This document shows, piece by piece, positions 4,317 to 15,154 of a stretch of 15,154 nucleotides of DNA. Source of the stretch: Pseudobacteriovorax sp. Lineage in GTDB: Bacteria; Bdellovibrionota_B; Oligoflexia; Oligoflexales; Oligoflexaceae. The notes beneath the pieces were generated by a model that worked only from the letters and a program-made list of their open reading frames with translations, was not told where the DNA came from and made no database searches. The stretch lies in the NCBI GenBank assembly GCA_050293845.1, contig JBNKNM010000130.1, positions 1 to 15,154 of the forward strand, given 5' to 3'. The stretch's first letter is position 1. Every line of letters starts with the position of its first letter. Position numbers and translations under genes: made by a program.

Positions 4317-6169
4317 TGCTTCTACTACTAATCATTTATGCAATAACATATACTTCCCAAGTTCTGGCGCAAGAAAAAGAGTTTTTCTTGAAACAGTTTG
4401 AAGGCAATCAAAACCAAGCAACTAGGGCTCCTGTAAGTGACTTGCTAGAAGATAAACGCGGACTTATCTATGTAGCCAATCAGTATGGATTACTAGAATA
4501 TGATGGCATCCAGTGGCGTCATATAAACCTTCCACATAACCAGCCTGCCCTTGCATTAGGAGCTGATCACAACGGTCGTGTGTATGTTGCCGGACAGGCC
4601 AACATCGGCTATCTTTCTCCTGATTTGACCGGTAAAATGATATATAAATCCCTTATTGAGGAAGTTCCCAGTCACCTTATCCCAGAGATCAAAGGTTATC
4701 TATCCATAAGCTATTTTGGTGAGAAAATAGCATTTATTTCTGAAAATTTTGTTTTGATTTGGGATGGTCATCATATGGAAAGTATTGAGACTCCTTTTAA
4801 AATATATGCAGGAATAGGTTTTAAAGATCAGCTTTATGTTTCAACAGATACCAAGGGATTTATGATTCTTAAAAAGGAAGGCTTTAGTCCAGTACCTGGC
4901 GGTAGAAACTTTACTGCTTCAAGCTTTATCACAGTTGATAGTCAATTAAACGCTGGTACCTTGGGCCGTGGTATTAACGAAATTAAATGGGTGAACGATA
5001 GCGTGACCTTTCAAGGCCTTAAGAATCATGATCCCTCTATGTTTAAAGGATTCCAGATTAGTCATTTTCAAATTAGAGATTCAATCGCCTTTACAGGAAC
5101 TATCGGTGGAGGTCTTAATATATTTGACCTCAAACATCGAAAGAGAATAGAGCTTTCATCTAAAACCAAGCAAGCACTAGGGGATGATATTTTTGCCATC
5201 AAGGCAGATCGTAGAGGTCGTATCTGGCTTGGTACGAACCATGGTATCTATGTCCTTATGGATAAACAACCTTCCTCCTCTCCAGTAGGGAAGGTGGCTT
5301 CCCAGGAATTTATAGCCTATATTAGAAGTTGCTTAAGTTTGAAGGATCAGAGTACCGTTTTTGGTGGAGCTTTTTTTAAAGAAATTGGAGGCGTGCAAAC
5401 TTTAGAAGCTTCTGAACTGAACAAACCCACATTGGCATTCGCCCAAAACTCCCTTCGCTTTACCTATTCCTCAAGTGACCTTGTTAATGCAGATATTATA
5501 GAATATCAAACTTACCTTGAAGGTTTTGATAGTCAGTGGTCCGATTGGTCTGAACGAACCTATCGCGAATTTACTAATCTGGTATGGAAGGAATATCAAT
5601 TCCATGTTAGAGCACGTCGCGGTGATGGAACTATTAGTAAAGAAGCAAGGTTCGAATTTACTATAGATCCTCCTTGGTATGAGCAGTATTGGTTTTATAG
5701 CTTGCAATTATTTATCCTAACTATTGTATTTTTAATCGTGGTATACATCAATGGCTGGACAGATCCCACACAGAGAAAGGATAGATCAAAAAAACTAAAC
5801 AACATCATCGTTGGTACTATTTGGGGTTATTCTTTCAGTAAAATAGGTGTACAGGGAGCTTTATGGGCATTTTCGGGAGGGGCTGCTTTCTTAGCTGTAA
5901 TATCAAAAGTGGTTATGGGTATTTTTCTTAAACCGATGCAAAAGAAGGTAGAGCTTAAAATTATCGATTCCCAGAAAAACCTGGTTAAAAAACTTCAAAG
6001 AAAACAGAAATCTAAAGAAAAAAGAATTGAGAATATTCAAATAAGTGTTGCTCAAAAGATACGACCAGGGAAGGCTAAAAAAGAAGCCATGAACGCAAAC
6101 AGACCTTATATTCGCTCCCGTCCTACTTCGCAAAATCTTAGACTTAAGAAGCAGCGCATGTCTCACTAA
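4313..6169 (+). CDS. Beta-propeller + Y_Y_Y (triple-tyrosine) sensor-like membrane protein with C-terminal TM helices and basic tail
   Basis: Likely start at the ATGA overlap (4313) after AAGGTGAG, with signal peptide MMLLLLIIYAITYTSQVLAQ. Propeller blades (EDKRGLIYVANQYGLLEYDG; ADRRGRIWLGTNHGI) are followed by a Y_Y_Y domain (YQTYLEGFDSQWSDW...FTNL...YQFHVRAR...FTIDPPWY) and 2-3 hydrophobic segments. Confidence 0.8.
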   Translation: MMLLLLIIYAITYTSQVLAQEKEFFLKQFEGNQNQATRAPVSDLLEDKRGLIYVANQYGLLEYDGIQWRHINLPHNQPALALGADHNGRVYVAGQANIGYLSPDLTGKMIYKSLIEEVPSHLIPEIKGYLSISYFGEKIAFISENFVLIWDGHHMESIETPFKIYAGIGFKDQLYVSTDTKGFMILKKEGFSPVPGGRNFTASSFITVDSQLNAGTLGRGINEIKWVNDSVTFQGLKNHDPSMFKGFQISHFQIRDSIAFTGTIGGGLNIFDLKHRKRIELSSKTKQALGDDIFAIKADRRGRIWLGTNHGIYVLMDKQPSSSPVGKVASQEFIAYIRSCLSLKDQSTVFGGAFFKEIGGVQTLEASELNKPTLAFAQNSLRFTYSSSDLVNADIIEYQTYLEGFDSQWSDWSERTYREFTNLVWKEYQFHVRARRGDGTISKEARFEFTIDPPWYEQYWFYSLQLFILTIVFLIVVYINGWTDPTQRKDRSKKLNNIIVGTIWGYSFSKIGVQGALWAFSGGAAFLAVISKVVMGIFLKPMQKKVELKIIDSQKNLVKKLQRKQKSKEKRIENIQISVAQKIRPGKAKKEAMNANRPYIRSRPTSQNLRLKKQRMSH

Positions 6170-6323: not shown

Positions 6324-8099
6324 ATGGGAGATGCTGCAAAGAAAATCCAAGATTCTATTGATGATAATTCAGAATCTGTATCTGAAAATGACTCTAAGAT
6401 CAAGATTCAAAATTTAACTGAGAATCCAGATCCGAATCAAATCGAGGATGACAACCAGGAGAATGGCTCTAACCTCAATCCCTCTCTTAACAATGTTAAA
6501 GAGAAAGTCACTAATTTTTTAAATGACAAGCAGCAATCTACTTTATCTCTTTTGACCCTCTCATTAGCTTTCACCGATGACCGGGAATGCGATGAAAATC
6601 ATCATTTTATCAAATTACTAGATCAGACATTAACAAATGACATGCATCTTGTTGACGCTTGCTTGCTTTTTGAAGAAAAAAGAGAGGCATTGAACCTTTT
6701 ACTAGATAATCTTGAAACTATCGAACAACAAGCAGCAGCTATTGAAACACTACATTTCTTTTTAAAAGATAAGAAAATCGATCCAGCATCTCGCCAGAAC
6801 ACGTCTTTAAACTATCAAAACATTCAATCCAAAATCACTAGCGATGATGTATTGAAAGACATTGTAGCATTCTATTTACAACTAAACTTAAAAAAAGCTA
6901 AAATGAATGATTCTTCCGCTGATCCTGAAGAAATTTTCTTAACCTTACTCCCTCACCTACAAGATAAGTATACATTAAAAGAGATGATACGATCACGATA
7001 CCAGGGACGCTGGTCAACGGTATTAAATAAATCCCAACAGCAAGTACTCGGGATTAAGAAACGCTTAAGCATACTGCATGCACCTTTTCAAACGGCTCAC
7101 TATTCCACCCATTGTTTGACACAAAACAAAGTCATCGCTTTGCTTGATCAAGAGATTGGCTTTCCCAAACAACTCGAAGAAGAAGAAACTTACACTCTTC
7201 TTGGTGCTGTTGGTCATGCATCTTCTGCTGACGGCCAGCAAACAGATGCCGCCGAAGCTACATATATCAAGGGACTTATCGAAAGGCTTAAAATTCAGGT
7301 TAATGTTAAAAAGTTTTCTCAGTATGTAAGTTTTGGATTGGATGAACTTTTAGCAAAAGTGGAAATGATTGAATTGCAACATGCTATTTATTACGAGGCT
7401 TTAAGTGTCGTTGTTGCCAACCTTGAAATTGATGATGATGAAAAGATACTTTTAGATAAGATAAGGGATACCTTTCATATCGATGAACAAAAGGTTATCC
7501 AGATGCATACGAAGTACTATCTTGACAGTGGTTTAAGGGGGGCTCTAGATAGCCTCAAGAATATACCTATTACAGAAAGTAAAAATGGCTGCATGCATCG
7601 CCTTCAAGAAGTACTTGTTGAAGCCGATCTTGTTCCTCTTAAAGAAATGGTACCTCTAGCTATTCAATACCTTGAGCGTATTGAGACGGTAAAACTTCCA
7701 CAGGAAGCGCCAACAGAAGTTCGTATGGCTGTTTTTTCGTTGGTAGGAAACGCTATGAGACTGGATAACAAGTTTGATGATGATGAGAAAAAATTTCTGA
7801 TTTCAGTCATGAATGAATTTGAACTTTCCAGTGATGACCTCAAGTCCCACGCAAAAATAATGAAGGAACTCAACCTTAAAGATCTTTGTAAAATAATCAA
7901 GAGCTGGGCTCGCAAACATAACCAAGATGCCCTGTTACCAGCTCTTGTCTATTATGTTTTAAAGGCATTTGCAGCCGACGGCGTGATTGATCCTGAGGAA
8001 GTTGCTTTTAAAGATCTATTTTTTAAAGAACTTGGTTTAAAAGCTCCCCCATATGCCAGAATGCTTTTAAGAGTCGTCTTGGAAGAGGTTATTATATAA
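6324..8099 (+). CDS. Multi-domain TerB-like (tellurite resistance B fold) protein
   Basis: Repeated TerB-type acidic motifs: SSADGQQTDAAE, VANLEIDDDE, RLDNKFDDDE, AADGVIDPEE, plus degenerate N-terminal copies. ATG 6324 follows GAGG; ATG 6312 is the alternative start. Confidence 0.7.
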   Translation: MGDAAKKIQDSIDDNSESVSENDSKIKIQNLTENPDPNQIEDDNQENGSNLNPSLNNVKEKVTNFLNDKQQSTLSLLTLSLAFTDDRECDENHHFIKLLDQTLTNDMHLVDACLLFEEKREALNLLLDNLETIEQQAAAIETLHFFLKDKKIDPASRQNTSLNYQNIQSKITSDDVLKDIVAFYLQLNLKKAKMNDSSADPEEIFLTLLPHLQDKYTLKEMIRSRYQGRWSTVLNKSQQQVLGIKKRLSILHAPFQTAHYSTHCLTQNKVIALLDQEIGFPKQLEEEETYTLLGAVGHASSADGQQTDAAEATYIKGLIERLKIQVNVKKFSQYVSFGLDELLAKVEMIELQHAIYYEALSVVVANLEIDDDEKILLDKIRDTFHIDEQKVIQMHTKYYLDSGLRGALDSLKNIPITESKNGCMHRLQEVLVEADLVPLKEMVPLAIQYLERIETVKLPQEAPTEVRMAVFSLVGNAMRLDNKFDDDEKKFLISVMNEFELSSDDLKSHAKIMKELNLKDLCKIIKSWARKHNQDALLPALVYYVLKAFAADGVIDPEEVAFKDLFFKELGLKAPPYARMLLRVVLEEVII

Positions 8100-8210: not shown

Positions 8211-8987
8211 ATGTTACATTTATGTAAAGTATTATTAACTTTAATCCTTACCTGTTTGCTAGCTTCATGCTTAGAGTCAGACGCTCAATTCAATAGCTTG
8301 AACCAGGAAAAAGACGATGAACTAGCCATTGAAGCTACTGATGCTATTTCAGTACCTCCAGAACCATTTGATACAGAAGAAAGTGTCGAATACCATGAGA
8401 AATTCGATTTGTGCAGTCATCTTGAAAAAAAGGTTAAAAATTCGGTTCTACAATTTCCAGCTACCGAAGCTTGCACCTTTGGTATGGGGGATAACTTAGA
8501 GGCTAAAGACAGTTTTCTCCAAGCCATTGTTTCACAAACCTCACAGGTTAAGCTAGAGGGTCGTAAAACTGTTCTTTGTGATCTGAAGATGACCACAGTA
8601 AGCCCCGAGCTGCAGTACGATGACTTCATCGTTCTCACAATCAATGATCGCGTACTAATGTCCAGCAATCAAGAAATCCTGAAATTTCTTGATTATGACA
8701 CATCGTATCAATGGAATTTCAAAAAAGCGCGGGGAAACATGCTGGACTTCAGTGGCCAGGCCTATTGTTTTGGAAATGAATTGAGCCTTTGCGAAATTCC
8801 TGAGACCGACACTTTTGGCAAGCTAAAGTTAGACTTTAACTCGGAAGTCATGGCTCAGTTAGCAAGCAACCTAAAAACAAAAGATACACTTAATTTCCAG
8901 CTCATTTCCACAGGAGACAATGATCCAGATGACTGTCTACACAGCGATTTTTCCTTGAGTTATGAGTTGAAGTATGTCAGTTACTGA
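8211..8987 (+). CDS. Cys-rich lipoprotein of unknown function
   Basis: Lipobox LAS|C after a hydrophobic stretch, an acidic linker, and six further Cys in the mature domain ending TGDNDPDDCLHS. RBS AAGGGGG. Confidence 0.7.
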   Translation: MLHLCKVLLTLILTCLLASCLESDAQFNSLNQEKDDELAIEATDAISVPPEPFDTEESVEYHEKFDLCSHLEKKVKNSVLQFPATEACTFGMGDNLEAKDSFLQAIVSQTSQVKLEGRKTVLCDLKMTTVSPELQYDDFIVLTINDRVLMSSNQEILKFLDYDTSYQWNFKKARGNMLDFSGQAYCFGNELSLCEIPETDTFGKLKLDFNSEVMAQLASNLKTKDTLNFQLISTGDNDPDDCLHSDFSLSYELKYVSY

Positions 8988-12526: not shown

Positions 12527-12988
12527 TTAAAACAAGTTTCTTTGGCGTAGCTGATCATAAACGACGATGGACACCGCATTTGCTAGATTCAGGCTGCGGA
12601 CATTATCATGGAACATAGGGATTTTATACATTTTATTATGGTGGTGATGGTGAAAATCTTTAGGAAATCCAGCAGTTTCTTGTCCAAACACCAAAACCTC
12701 GGTATCGGTAGGAACCTCTACATAGCTAGCCTGCGCAAATTTTGAGAAAAAAGCAACTCGCCCGTCAACCTGATCATATAGCTGTTCAAAACTATTATGA
12801 ATTTCTAGATCTAAAAAAGGCCAATAATCCAGCCCTGGACGTCTGACATTTTTGTCGTCCATGGAAAACCCAAAGGGTGTTATCAAGTGCAAGCGACAGG
12901 CGGTTGCAGCTGCCAACCTTCCAATATTGCCAGTATTCTGTGGGATCTCAGGACGATACAAACAGATTTGCGGGTGACCTTGCTTCAA
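12527..12988 (-). CDS. trmL: tRNA (cytidine/uridine(34)-2'-O)-methyltransferase, SPOUT family
   Basis: LYRPEIPQNTGNIGR, RRPGLDYW, VFGQETAG and IPM..VRSLNLANAV motifs. TTG start after AAGGA. Confidence 0.93.
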   Translation of the reverse strand: MKQGHPQICLYRPEIPQNTGNIGRLAAATACRLHLITPFGFSMDDKNVRRPGLDYWPFLDLEIHNSFEQLYDQVDGRVAFFSKFAQASYVEVPTDTEVLVFGQETAGFPKDFHHHHHNKMYKIPMFHDNVRSLNLANAVSIVVYDQLRQRNLF

Positions 12989-13000
12989 GCTATTTCCTTT

Positions 13001-13624
13001 TCATTGTTTAGTTTGGATAATATTCCCATCTGTCTGTTGCATCAACTTCTTAAAGGCCCGCCTATAAAGCATAAAGCTTGCGATTTTAACGATAATGTGA
13101 CCCAAAAGTGAGGGCCATATACTTGCAGTGACTGCATACATCCAAGCGAAAATAATACCTGTTATAAAGGCCATGAGAGTCCAAGAACCGATGCGGTTTC
13201 CAGGGCCCAGGTGAACTAGGGTAAACAAGACCGCCGTGAAAGGGGCTCCTACCTCGGGTTGAATGGCACCCTGAAACATCAATTGCTCTGCCACAGCAGT
13301 AATGACCGCCAAATAAATTCCCACACTGCTCTGTAACCCGCCAATATATTGCACGAGAACGCTCTTATAGGCTTTGAAGCTGGGGAAAAACTCCTCAAGA
13401 AGAAATTGACCGATAAGTAAGACCCCAATGGATAGAGCTGTTAAGGTAAGGAGCTGAGTGATGGAAAAACTCGGGACATTCCAGGAGAATAGCACCGGTA
13501 TCCCTTGATGCTGGAAATGAACTATCAGCAAGGCAATGACTGCCATACCTCCGTAGAAGAGCGTCGAGTTCAAGAGCATTTGACCTATCGGTACGTTTTT
13601 TTGACTAACATCTTGTCTGCTCAT
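13001..13624 (-). CDS. CPBP (CAAX protease/Abi)-family intramembrane protein with degenerate motifs
   Basis: Several TM helices; motif positions AEQLMFQG, FTLVH and HIIVK. Start probably ATG 13624 (MSRQD); the ORF track extends to 13669. Confidence 0.75.
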   Translation of the reverse strand: MSRQDVSQKNVPIGQMLLNSTLFYGGMAVIALLIVHFQHQGIPVLFSWNVPSFSITQLLTLTALSIGVLLIGQFLLEEFFPSFKAYKSVLVQYIGGLQSSVGIYLAVITAVAEQLMFQGAIQPEVGAPFTAVLFTLVHLGPGNRIGSWTLMAFITGIIFAWMYAVTASIWPSLLGHIIVKIASFMLYRRAFKKLMQQTDGNIIQTKQ

Positions 13625-13729
13625 TTTATATCTCATGTGATTATCAGGAACAGCTTCACCTAGAACCAAAATGTCTTAATGGTTTTTTATTGAAAAATCA
13701 CGTAATTTCGGGAGCTGAGGAGGCAATTT

Positions 13730-14794
13730 ATGACAAGATCACAGTCCACCTACATCTGTTTTACACTAATCCTAGTCTTACTGACATTACCGATTAAGGC
13801 GAATGTACGGCTGCAAACGCAACAGCTTGACGAGGTCATCGGTCTACTGGAACTCAAAAAACCATATGCTGATAGGGAGTTGTGGCTAAAGAATGCTGCA
13901 TCCCTGCATAGAATTATTCAGAAAAATAAGCTTACAGACCAGCAGTTTGCCGTAGCATTAAATCAGTTACTGGCTTCTTCTGGCATCTACAGCCCTGCGG
14001 TATTTTCTACGGACTCATTCCCCTATCTGCAAATGCTGCACCCTGAGAAAAGCCACCTTTGGGGTTACATCGCAAAGTTGCATGGCAGCGCCTCCTACAT
14101 TCAATATGTACTGAATGCCGGATCTACTCTACAGAGAGGGGATCGCTTGGAAAAGCCTCCATCCCTACCTAAGCCAAAAGGATCTATTTCCTTAATTATT
14201 AAAAAATCTCCCCTGAAAGCCAATCAAGTGCTCAGCACTCCCCAAGATCATAGAAGCCTCCGCGAGGCATTTTTTGACTTCAGCTATCGTAGTATAGGGA
14301 CATTTACAGCACAGAATCAGCAACACCCCTACATTCATTTGCTGGATTGCGGGTCCTCCAGTCTTCCCTTAATAAAAACCTGGATAGGGAAGGCAAAAAA
14401 AACGGCCCATTTCTTTTTAGACCTGAGAGATTGCTACTGCGAAGATTCCACTGCTATTACAGCAACCATTCACAAACAGCTCCCGCAGTCCAAAATCGTC
14501 ATTCTGCAAAACAAGGGGACCCGCTTGGGAGCTGAACACCTCATCCAAAGTATAAAATCATCATGGCGAGAAAATTCTGTCAGCATAGGTGAGCCAACAG
14601 GAGGTTTTAGTAGTCCTCGCCAAGCCTTGAAGCTTAGTATGGGCGATCTATGGCTATTGATACCGGAGCACAAGCAGACTGTTGCTCCCCTGGCTCCAGA
14701 CTTTTTTACTAAGGACAGTTTTATATATGCACAGGGGCAAGACGATCTTTTAAATGCAGCACAAGCCTACGTGTTCTCGAAAAAAAGTCATTAA
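13730..14794 (+). CDS. Exported S41 (tail-specific protease)-like protein, probably catalytically degenerate
   Basis: Signal peptide (…LTLPIKA) and RBS GAGGAGG. S41 landmarks in the expected order: YIHL, FLDLR, IVILQNKGTRLGAE, IGEPTGG, APD. Confidence 0.7.
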   Translation: MTRSQSTYICFTLILVLLTLPIKANVRLQTQQLDEVIGLLELKKPYADRELWLKNAASLHRIIQKNKLTDQQFAVALNQLLASSGIYSPAVFSTDSFPYLQMLHPEKSHLWGYIAKLHGSASYIQYVLNAGSTLQRGDRLEKPPSLPKPKGSISLIIKKSPLKANQVLSTPQDHRSLREAFFDFSYRSIGTFTAQNQQHPYIHLLDCGSSSLPLIKTWIGKAKKTAHFFLDLRDCYCEDSTAITATIHKQLPQSKIVILQNKGTRLGAEHLIQSIKSSWRENSVSIGEPTGGFSSPRQALKLSMGDLWLLIPEHKQTVAPLAPDFFTKDSFIYAQGQDDLLNAAQAYVFSKKSH

Positions 14795-14801
14795 TTCGGG
14801 A

Positions 14802-14996
14802 TCAGAAATATTTTCTTTTTGGTTTGGATCTATAAAGACCAATTTCAATAGAATAGTTTTCGTAGTTTAACTTAAAATTATTTGAAAGATTGGAACTAAC
14901 AACACCACTGATGTCTCCTAACAAATTATTTGCTACCTTTACGTTAAGTGTGTTGCTTTCAGTGTAGAACTCATAACCTTCATCGGTATAATACCA
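14802..14996 (-). pseudogene. Possible orphan 3' gene fragment next to the IS end
   Basis: 64 stop-free codons in AT-rich DNA (WYYTDEGYEFYTESNTLNVKV...YRSKPKRKYF*), preceded by an in-frame TAA and with no ATG. Confidence 0.3.
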
Positions 14997-15154
14997 TTAA
15001 TCCTTCAGTGACATCTTCTCTCGACTGAAGTCGAAAGCATCCTGTAGTTAGGATGTCCGAAGCATGGTCACATGAGCCACGCTTACTTGAGGTTTGCAGG
15101 AGAATGGAGCCAGCTCTAGTTTCCTGCTACTATCGGGAAGATTTCCAGAAAGGC
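14988..15154 (-). ncRNA. Putative TnpB-associated omega/reRNA (3' part of scaffold plus ~20-nt flanking guide), 5'-truncated
   Basis: Four consecutive hairpins whose G-U wobbles favour the minus strand: GCAGGA/UCCUGC, AGCGUGG/CCAUGCU, CAUCCU/AGGAUG and CUUUCGAC/GUCGAGAG. A loop GUGAC is complementary to the terminal GUCAC. Confidence 0.6.
15008..15041 (-). mobile_element. Right end (RE) of an IS200/IS605-family element; element body extends beyond the window
   Basis: Minus strand reads GATG-CTTTCGAC-TTCA-GTCGAGAG-AAGATG-TCAC: a 4-nt guide, an 8-bp stem with one G-T pair, a 6-nt spacer and a tetranucleotide cleavage site. This is the IS608/ISDra2-type RE layout. Confidence 0.78.

Follow-up and report, generated by a model that had tools for sequence, protein, structure and literature searches.

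The minus strand of positions 15008-15154 is almost certainly the right end of an insertion-sequence copy of the IS200/IS605 family, of the IS605/IS608 type. The window (the whole stretch of DNA analysed, 15,154 nt long) is the entire contig C130 of a 6.68-Mb assembly in 741 contigs; 15154 is its last base, and only 147 nt of the copy are visible, with no tnpA, tnpB core, or left end in view. The right end proposed in the initial annotation is supported by (i) the boundary shared by other copies in the genome, (ii) the tnpA and tnpB genes to which this end is joined elsewhere, and (iii) a hairpin at the opposite end of the element. It is an ordinary right end of its family in a host from the GTDB family that also holds Oligoflexus, and its identification leaves current understanding unchanged. 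The features discussed below are the following.

15008..15154, minus strand: right-end portion of an IS200/IS605-family element, with 15008 as the point where all copies lose similarity
15008..15011, minus strand: terminal tetranucleotide TCAC, putative right cleavage word (CR), present in 20 of 20 copies
15012..15017, minus strand: 6-nt spacer AAGATG from hairpin foot to TCAC, with the copies in register
15018..15037, minus strand: subterminal hairpin (IP_R) with an 8-bp stem CTTTCGAC/GTCGAGAG and loop TTCA, from fold and covariation
15038..15041, minus strand: putative guide tetranucleotide (GR) GATG, adjoining the hairpin foot on its 5′ side, intact in 16 of the 20 copies of this genome
15038..15055, minus strand: second conserved stem-loop, CATCC(T) AACTAC (A)GGATG (helix 6), from alignment A1 and an 18-sequence alignment
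15048..15152, minus strand: C-terminal tail of TnpB, an ORF of 34 codons open at the contig end and finishing in LAPFSCKPQVSVAHVTMLRTS and a stop
15056..15154, minus strand: helices 2-5 of a putative omega RNA scaffold, from alignment A1
15072..15075, minus strand: internal word TCAT, which is TCAC in most copies, from copy comparison
14988..15007, minus strand: flank outside the element, placed by sequence, with a presumptive role as RNA guide

On the minus strand, 15041-15008 reads GATG CTTTCGAC TTCA GTCGAGAG AAGATG TCAC, exactly the string and coordinates first quoted for it. The hairpin comprises CTTTCGAC (15037-15030), TTCA (15029-15026), and GTCGAGAG (15025-15018), and its stem of eight pairs includes one T·G (15035/15020). 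Folded as DNA, it has an energy of −3.9 kcal/mol (z = −0.62), which 51 of 200 shuffles equal. Since the hairpin does not rise above chance on energy alone, the evidence that it is real comes from the comparison of copies.

A BLAST search of window positions 14900-15154 against the same genome yields 21 other matches, of which 18 start at query positions 105-109 (window 15004-15008), one starts at 97, and two are internal pieces. When the copies are placed in register, window copy included, 20 of 20 end in TCAC and 19 of 20 in GTCAC, and the DNA past the end is unrelated in every copy. Both the existence of other copies and a stop of similarity at 15008 had been anticipated, and the genome bears them out with a boundary at exactly that position; cleavage would fall 3′ of the C at 15008. 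Contigs assembled from public runs show loose ends at the same two borders of the element (places 949 and 2840 of L026). GATG is intact in 16 of the 20 copies, has one altered letter in three, and is missing with its region from one. The segment 15008..15154, truncated by the contig end, corresponds to the last 145-147 nt of a reference copy of 1892 nt (C43:4916-6807), to which it is 95% identical; its identity to the copy on C238 is 98%. The contig stop at 15154 is explained by its position inside a repeat present about 20 times, and no host feature is hidden at 15008-15041.

The reference copy carries a tnpB gene split by a frameshift, on the strand matching the minus strand of the window, and a divergent Y1 transposase gene, tnpA, on the opposite strand and upstream of tnpB. 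The tnpA and tnpB genes and the left-end hairpin that were predicted to lie inside the element are all present in this full copy, the interior of the window copy being beyond its contig. The two tnpB ORFs (255 and 198 codons) overlap by 20 nt and cover positions 2-260 and 267-388 of the TnpB model NF040570; singly they score 61.3 and 45.6 bits, below its cut-off of 100, and the second also matches PF07282 with 51 bits. Contigs from two public runs (X1 and X2) have two extra letters at position 1503 of L026 (about 5470 of C43), inside the ORF overlap. By arithmetic, these letters would put both ORFs in one frame, and the frameshift of the reference copy may be specific to that copy or an assembly error. 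An intact TnpB of 446 codons, 56% identical and with the RuvC and zinc-ribbon parts, occurs in Oligoflexus tunisiensis Shr3 (G013) and scores 148.9 bits against the same cut-off of 100.

The Y1 (HUH) transposase of the reference copies lies outside the window. The tnpA gene of C43 (6360-6716) matches PF01797 with 152 bits, and the tnpA copy on C354 reaches 157.8 bits with NF033573, the IS200/IS605 equivalog model (cut-off 55). The motifs HCH and SYYVGTVG are both recognizable. The gene starts with an I codon (ATA/ATT) in C43:6360-6716 and with M (ATG) in C354:4006-4365. The C354 protein has G for D immediately before the HCH motif.

In the window, the only coding part of the element is the TnpB tail (15048..15152), which is in the same frame in C43. 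Its stop codon TAA (15050-15048) lies inside the sequence CCTAACTAC, which is invariant in the window, the C-type copies, and the relatives, and intact relatives stop at the same TAA. The tail extends past the conserved TnpB profile, which in a relative ends at about residue 387 of 429, some 40 residues before the protein end, and it overlaps the RNA scaffold described below.

At its left end, the reference copy has TTTAG directly before the border, followed by AATAATGAGCCGT AATC and an 8-bp hairpin with a TTCA loop. Ten left ends are found in the assembly, each reading on the top strand as flank, TTTAG, AATAATGAGCCGT, AATC, CCACCTTT TTCA AAGGGTGG, and ATATAAGG, with TTTAG ahead of the end in eight of the ten and the letters AT after the hairpin. 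Both ends of the element have an 8-bp stem with one T·G pair and a TTCA loop. In the copy on C417, a C-G pair of the left stem is replaced by A-T on both sides, changing CCACC/GGTGG to CCAAC/GTTGG. The termini AATAATG… and …GATGTCAC are not inverted repeats, so that the element carries a subterminal hairpin near each end, both on one strand, and lacks terminal inverted repeats. The two-ended copies on C43 and C69 have flanks with no duplication; C417 has the 7-letter word ATTATTC in both flanks, not abutting the ends, which is taken as chance.

The letters TTTAG are probably the target word, judging from the left ends. Because no empty site was found, they could formally belong to the element instead of to the target. 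A search of 30 relatives with window positions 14300-15154 returned matches to the element part only and never to the flank. Likewise, the contigs of four public runs contain no joint that skips the whole element of the C43 copy, in a search that used contigs only and would miss rare forms. No left end could be placed by eye in the Oligoflexus tunisiensis element, which is single-copy in its own genome, or in L034, and the left-end rule has therefore been tested in one family only.

Relatives in Oligoflexus and in metagenomes keep GATG, the spacer, and TCAC and alter the hairpin by compensatory substitutions. The Oligoflexus tunisiensis element ends GATG CTCGGGAA TTTA TTCCCGAG AGGATG TCAC, a further relative genome locus ends GATG CCATCCAA TTCA TTGGATGG AGGATG TCAC, and another ends GATG CTTGGGAA TTCA TTTCCGAG AGGACG TCAC. 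TCAC is invariant in the genome loci of relatives, and GATG is kept in L033, L034, and L035. A scan of metagenome contigs in which the letters around the hairpin were fixed and its 20 letters left free found 19 loci with eight distinct hairpins, each with 7-8 of the 8 pairs; their TCAC is set by the search pattern, and their flanks past TCAC differ except in one duplicate pair. Across 18 aligned family members, all eight pairs of the right hairpin are kept, with two-sided changes at six of the eight. L037, a locus from Paenactinomyces with a 37% identical TnpB, was left out of all counts. There, a similar TTCA hairpin is accompanied by a TCAC, but the locus has no defined end, and the tetranucleotide adjoining the best-paired stem on its 5′ side does not fit the guide rule.

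Among the closest known systems is IS608 of Helicobacter pylori. As set out in excerpts of PMC5934647, its cleavage words are TTAC (CL) and TCAA (CR) and its guides AAAG (GL) and GAAT (GR), which agrees with the words GAAT…TCAA named for it in the initial annotation. The same excerpts give the left-end pairs T-4:A+17 and T-3:A+16 and the triplets T-4/A+17/A+42 and T-3/A+16/T+43. At the right end, C-3 pairs with G-35 and T-4 with A-34, whereas A-2 has no partner; A-10 and G-9, immediately 3′ of the foot, take part in triplets, and CR and CL lie 10 nt 3′ and 19 nt 5′ of their respective hairpin feet (excerpts of PMC3201880).

The present element resembles IS608 in having a Y1 transposase together with tnpB, in carrying its subterminal hairpins on a single strand, and in the 4-letter guides that adjoin each hairpin foot on the 5′ side. 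The right cleavage word is likewise internal to the element, and its last letter is 10 nt 3′ of the foot (AGGATGTCAC), which is the length of the spacer plus TCAC, and the letters after the feet are AG at the right end (19 of 20 copies) and AT at the left. The words appear to follow the same scheme, with guide letter 1 opposite cleavage letter 2, guide letter 2 opposite cleavage letter 1, and A at the third cleavage place. At the right end, GATG with TCAC would give G1:C2 and A2:T1; at the left, AATC with TTAG would give A1:T2 and A2:T1. The fourth letters are also complementary, G with C on the right and C with G on the left. Such fourth-letter pairing is said to occur in IS608 as well, according to a structure paper of 2008.

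The guide reading of GATG/TCAC made at the outset holds up for its first two letters, which fit the interactions described in the excerpts of PMC3201880, and AATC/TTAG fits likewise. Both ends thus seem, on their letters, to conform to the IS608 guide/cleavage pattern. A fit at three positions of both ends would arise with a nominal probability of 1 in 4096, a figure to be read with the fact that the position of the left foot was chosen after seeing the sequence. Guide and cleavage words do not covary among the family members examined, and the rule therefore rests on the two ends of one family and on the comparison with IS608; the metagenome loci, with guide and TCAC fixed by the pattern, are uninformative on this point.

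The element differs from IS608 in its words (TTAG/AATC and TCAC/GATG as opposed to TTAC/AAAG and TCAA/GAAT), in its third guide letter (T at both ends, where IS608 has A), and in its left spacing from cleavage to foot (17 nt as opposed to 19). The tnpA and tnpB genes are divergent in C43, and those of IS608 point in the same direction. The window copy has its own peculiarity: the second letter past the hairpin foot (15016) is A in this copy only and G in the other 19. This letter is the counterpart of G-9 in IS608, and the window copy may be a poorer substrate. What the comparison adds is a natural word pair, AATC/TTAG and GATG/TCAC, that appears to obey the base-pairing rule of IS608 at either end of a single element.

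On its top strand, the full element of about 1.89 kb reads as TTTAG (the putative target word), left hairpin, divergent tnpA, tnpB, and right hairpin ending in TCAC. By analogy with IS608, TnpA would bind both 8-bp TTCA-loop hairpins on the single-stranded top strand and find its cleavage points by guide pairing: on the left, AATC would pair with TTAG, and on the right, GATG with TCAC. A single-stranded circle would be excised and then inserted 3′ of TTAG. Any activity of the window copy itself is conjectural.

Two readings that do without an insertion sequence were weighed against this one. The hairpin lies in intergenic DNA about 215 nt past the stop of the upstream 354-codon gene (13730-14794), where it could be an intrinsic terminator or regulatory stem-loop of that gene that resembles an insertion-sequence end by chance. 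Positions 14600-15154 hold no terminator-like site, however, and no T-run follows the stem, on which grounds the terminator was ruled out; the roughly 20 copies, their sharp border, and the continuity into the tnpB frame argue against it as well and make this reading scarcely credible. A repeat of the REP/BIME type mobilized by a RAYT is very improbable too, if slightly less so. Its appeal is that the hairpin is repeated in intergenic DNA and that the tnpA product weakly matches the RAYT model NF047646 (26.8 bits against a cut-off of 80), but the tnpA passes the IS200/IS605 equivalog model with 157.8 bits, the repeat unit runs on unbroken into tnpB and, in C43, to a tnpA and a left end, and the short copies are 5′-truncated versions of one and the same end, not independent REP units.

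The insertion-sequence end also appears to encode part of an RNA. In an alignment (A1) of the last ~175 nt of ten family members, seven helices with 40 pairs are conserved. The scaffold cells are paired in 93.7% of cases, a figure that drops to 39-48% once the partners are shifted by 1-3 columns. Double changes occur in 21 pairs, and none of 500 shuffles reaches any of five measures. Helices 2-5 are visible in the window (15056..15154), and helix 1 is lost at the contig end. Helix 6 is the stem-loop at 15038..15055, which contains the guide GATG and the tnpB stop TAA; in the 18-sequence alignment it corresponds to pairs 151-156 with 163-168 and shows one-sided changes to G·U and no double changes. 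Rfam gave no match at gathering score for the window and L004, and none at E values up to 10 for L004 1450-1800.

The last ~175 nt are thus a candidate guide-RNA (omega RNA/reRNA) scaffold for TnpB, as judged from their conserved pairing. In ISDra2 of Deinococcus radiodurans, an RNA of ~150 nt is produced from the 3′ end of tnpB together with the right end, its last ~16 nt coming from the flank, and the TAM is the target word of the transposon (excerpts of PMC8612924). The TnpB/reRNA pair of ISDra2 is matched here in that the conserved helices overlap the 3′ end of tnpB. The target word differs, being TTGAT in ISDra2 and probably TTTAG here; another difference is that the present tnpB frame comes within 40 nt of the end of the element. 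If the end were transcribed as in ISDra2, the flank at 14988..15007 would be the guide part of the RNA, read from 15007 downwards, and TTTAG would be the TAM. A TnpB guide-RNA scaffold family from Oligoflexus-like bacteria, with clear covariation, would be an addition to those known.

The insertion-site neighbors, at window 12527-14794, are a SpoU-type methylase, an Rce1-like (CPBP) membrane protease, and the 354-codon ORF, for which there is no Pfam match (13730-14794). Their order is kept in four relatives.

Most right ends in this genome are far from complete elements. The assembly holds one full-length element, two two-ended derivatives (C69 and C417), 20 right ends, and ten left ends, so that a full-length element is attached to only one of about 20 right ends. 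C69:20648-20849 (L009) is a gene-less derivative of 202 nt made up of 67 nt of left end and 133-135 nt of right end, and contigs from two public runs share its joint (1078 to 2777). The C417 copy has an internal deletion. Both resemble the non-autonomous IS200/IS605 derivatives known as PATE/MITE-like elements. Unlike such derivatives, most of the remnants here consist of the right end only, as the 20 right and ten left ends attest.

The window copy may itself be such a stub, of about 244 nt, whose other part forms the end of contig C55 and whose 5′ break is at TTTAG, a reading that falls just short of an even chance. From its end, C55 starts with GGCCCTGCC and matches reference positions 1649-1750 at 98% identity, and C130 starts at 1748. 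Six contig ends match the element (C377, C130, two C354 pieces, C55, and C364), and no other two of them are complementary. The break falls in the palindrome GCCCTG..CAGGGC, and most right ends of the genome are stubs, 15 of them with a visible 5′ break. Set against this pairing, the overlap is only 3 nt and no read or contig was shown to bridge it, the identity to C43 differs between the two pieces (95% vs 98%), and in four relatives the gene on C55 was not found within 1.5 kb of the homologues of the neighbor gene. The C130 end shares no exact overlap of 21-127 letters with any contig end. Synteny via the 354-codon neighbor gene failed to link C130, its homologues being only 30-33% identical and the C55 gene not beside them. 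As a stub, the window copy would no longer be autonomous but would retain most of the RNA scaffold.

Among the 15 right-end stubs with a visible break, five have TTTAG exactly at the break, against a background of 0.0016 per position: C85:2094-2157, C300:4004-4067, C67:~8330-8393, C76:18564-18617, and C55:27987-28088. Those on C85, C300, and C67 are independent stubs that break after an internal CTCAC, at reference 1827-1830 and 62 nt inside the end, one of ten TCAC words on the top strand. In the consensus, this internal TCAC (window 15072..15075) is the break point of the three short stubs. In the C76 and C55 stubs, the break follows TTCG (at 1841 and 1649, respectively), a word with 11 occurrences, and can shift within TT-G. 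The only departure of TTCG from TTAG is at the unpaired third place.

The TTTAG joints suggest deletions made by the transposase and not random decay. Such stubs could have arisen if TnpA cut after a true TTTAG and at an internal look-alike word and the donor was then resealed. That the stubs are TnpA footprints which leave behind gene-less right ends encoding the scaffold beside a new flank is a tentative proposal and on balance unlikely to be correct; the window copy may be among them by way of its possible partner, C55. If the proposal were true, orphan ends could act as extra guide-RNA genes for TnpB supplied in trans. The TTTAG-joined right-end stubs are the one mildly new lead.

The genome has 23 Y1_Tnp matches in all, and several such families are thus present. 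At C453:480-640, another high-copy repeat abuts a fragment of the element whose end is the internal TCAC, with TTTAGAAGG after it; identical 76- or 77-nt pieces of this other repeat occur at the ends of C179, C91, C88, C1, C132, and C429, and 59 nt of it at C155. The element copies at C238:~7133-7180 and C309:~5422-5500 are interrupted by a different repeat ending in …CAATTGTTCAATGTCACA, which is probably another insertion sequence. Outside this genome, a right-end stub of 196 nt that is 93% identical to the C43 reference lies in another genus of the same family (G002:C27:238529-238724, L020). The host genes near it have only ~33-74% protein identity, and the comparison hints at a recent horizontal spread of the element.
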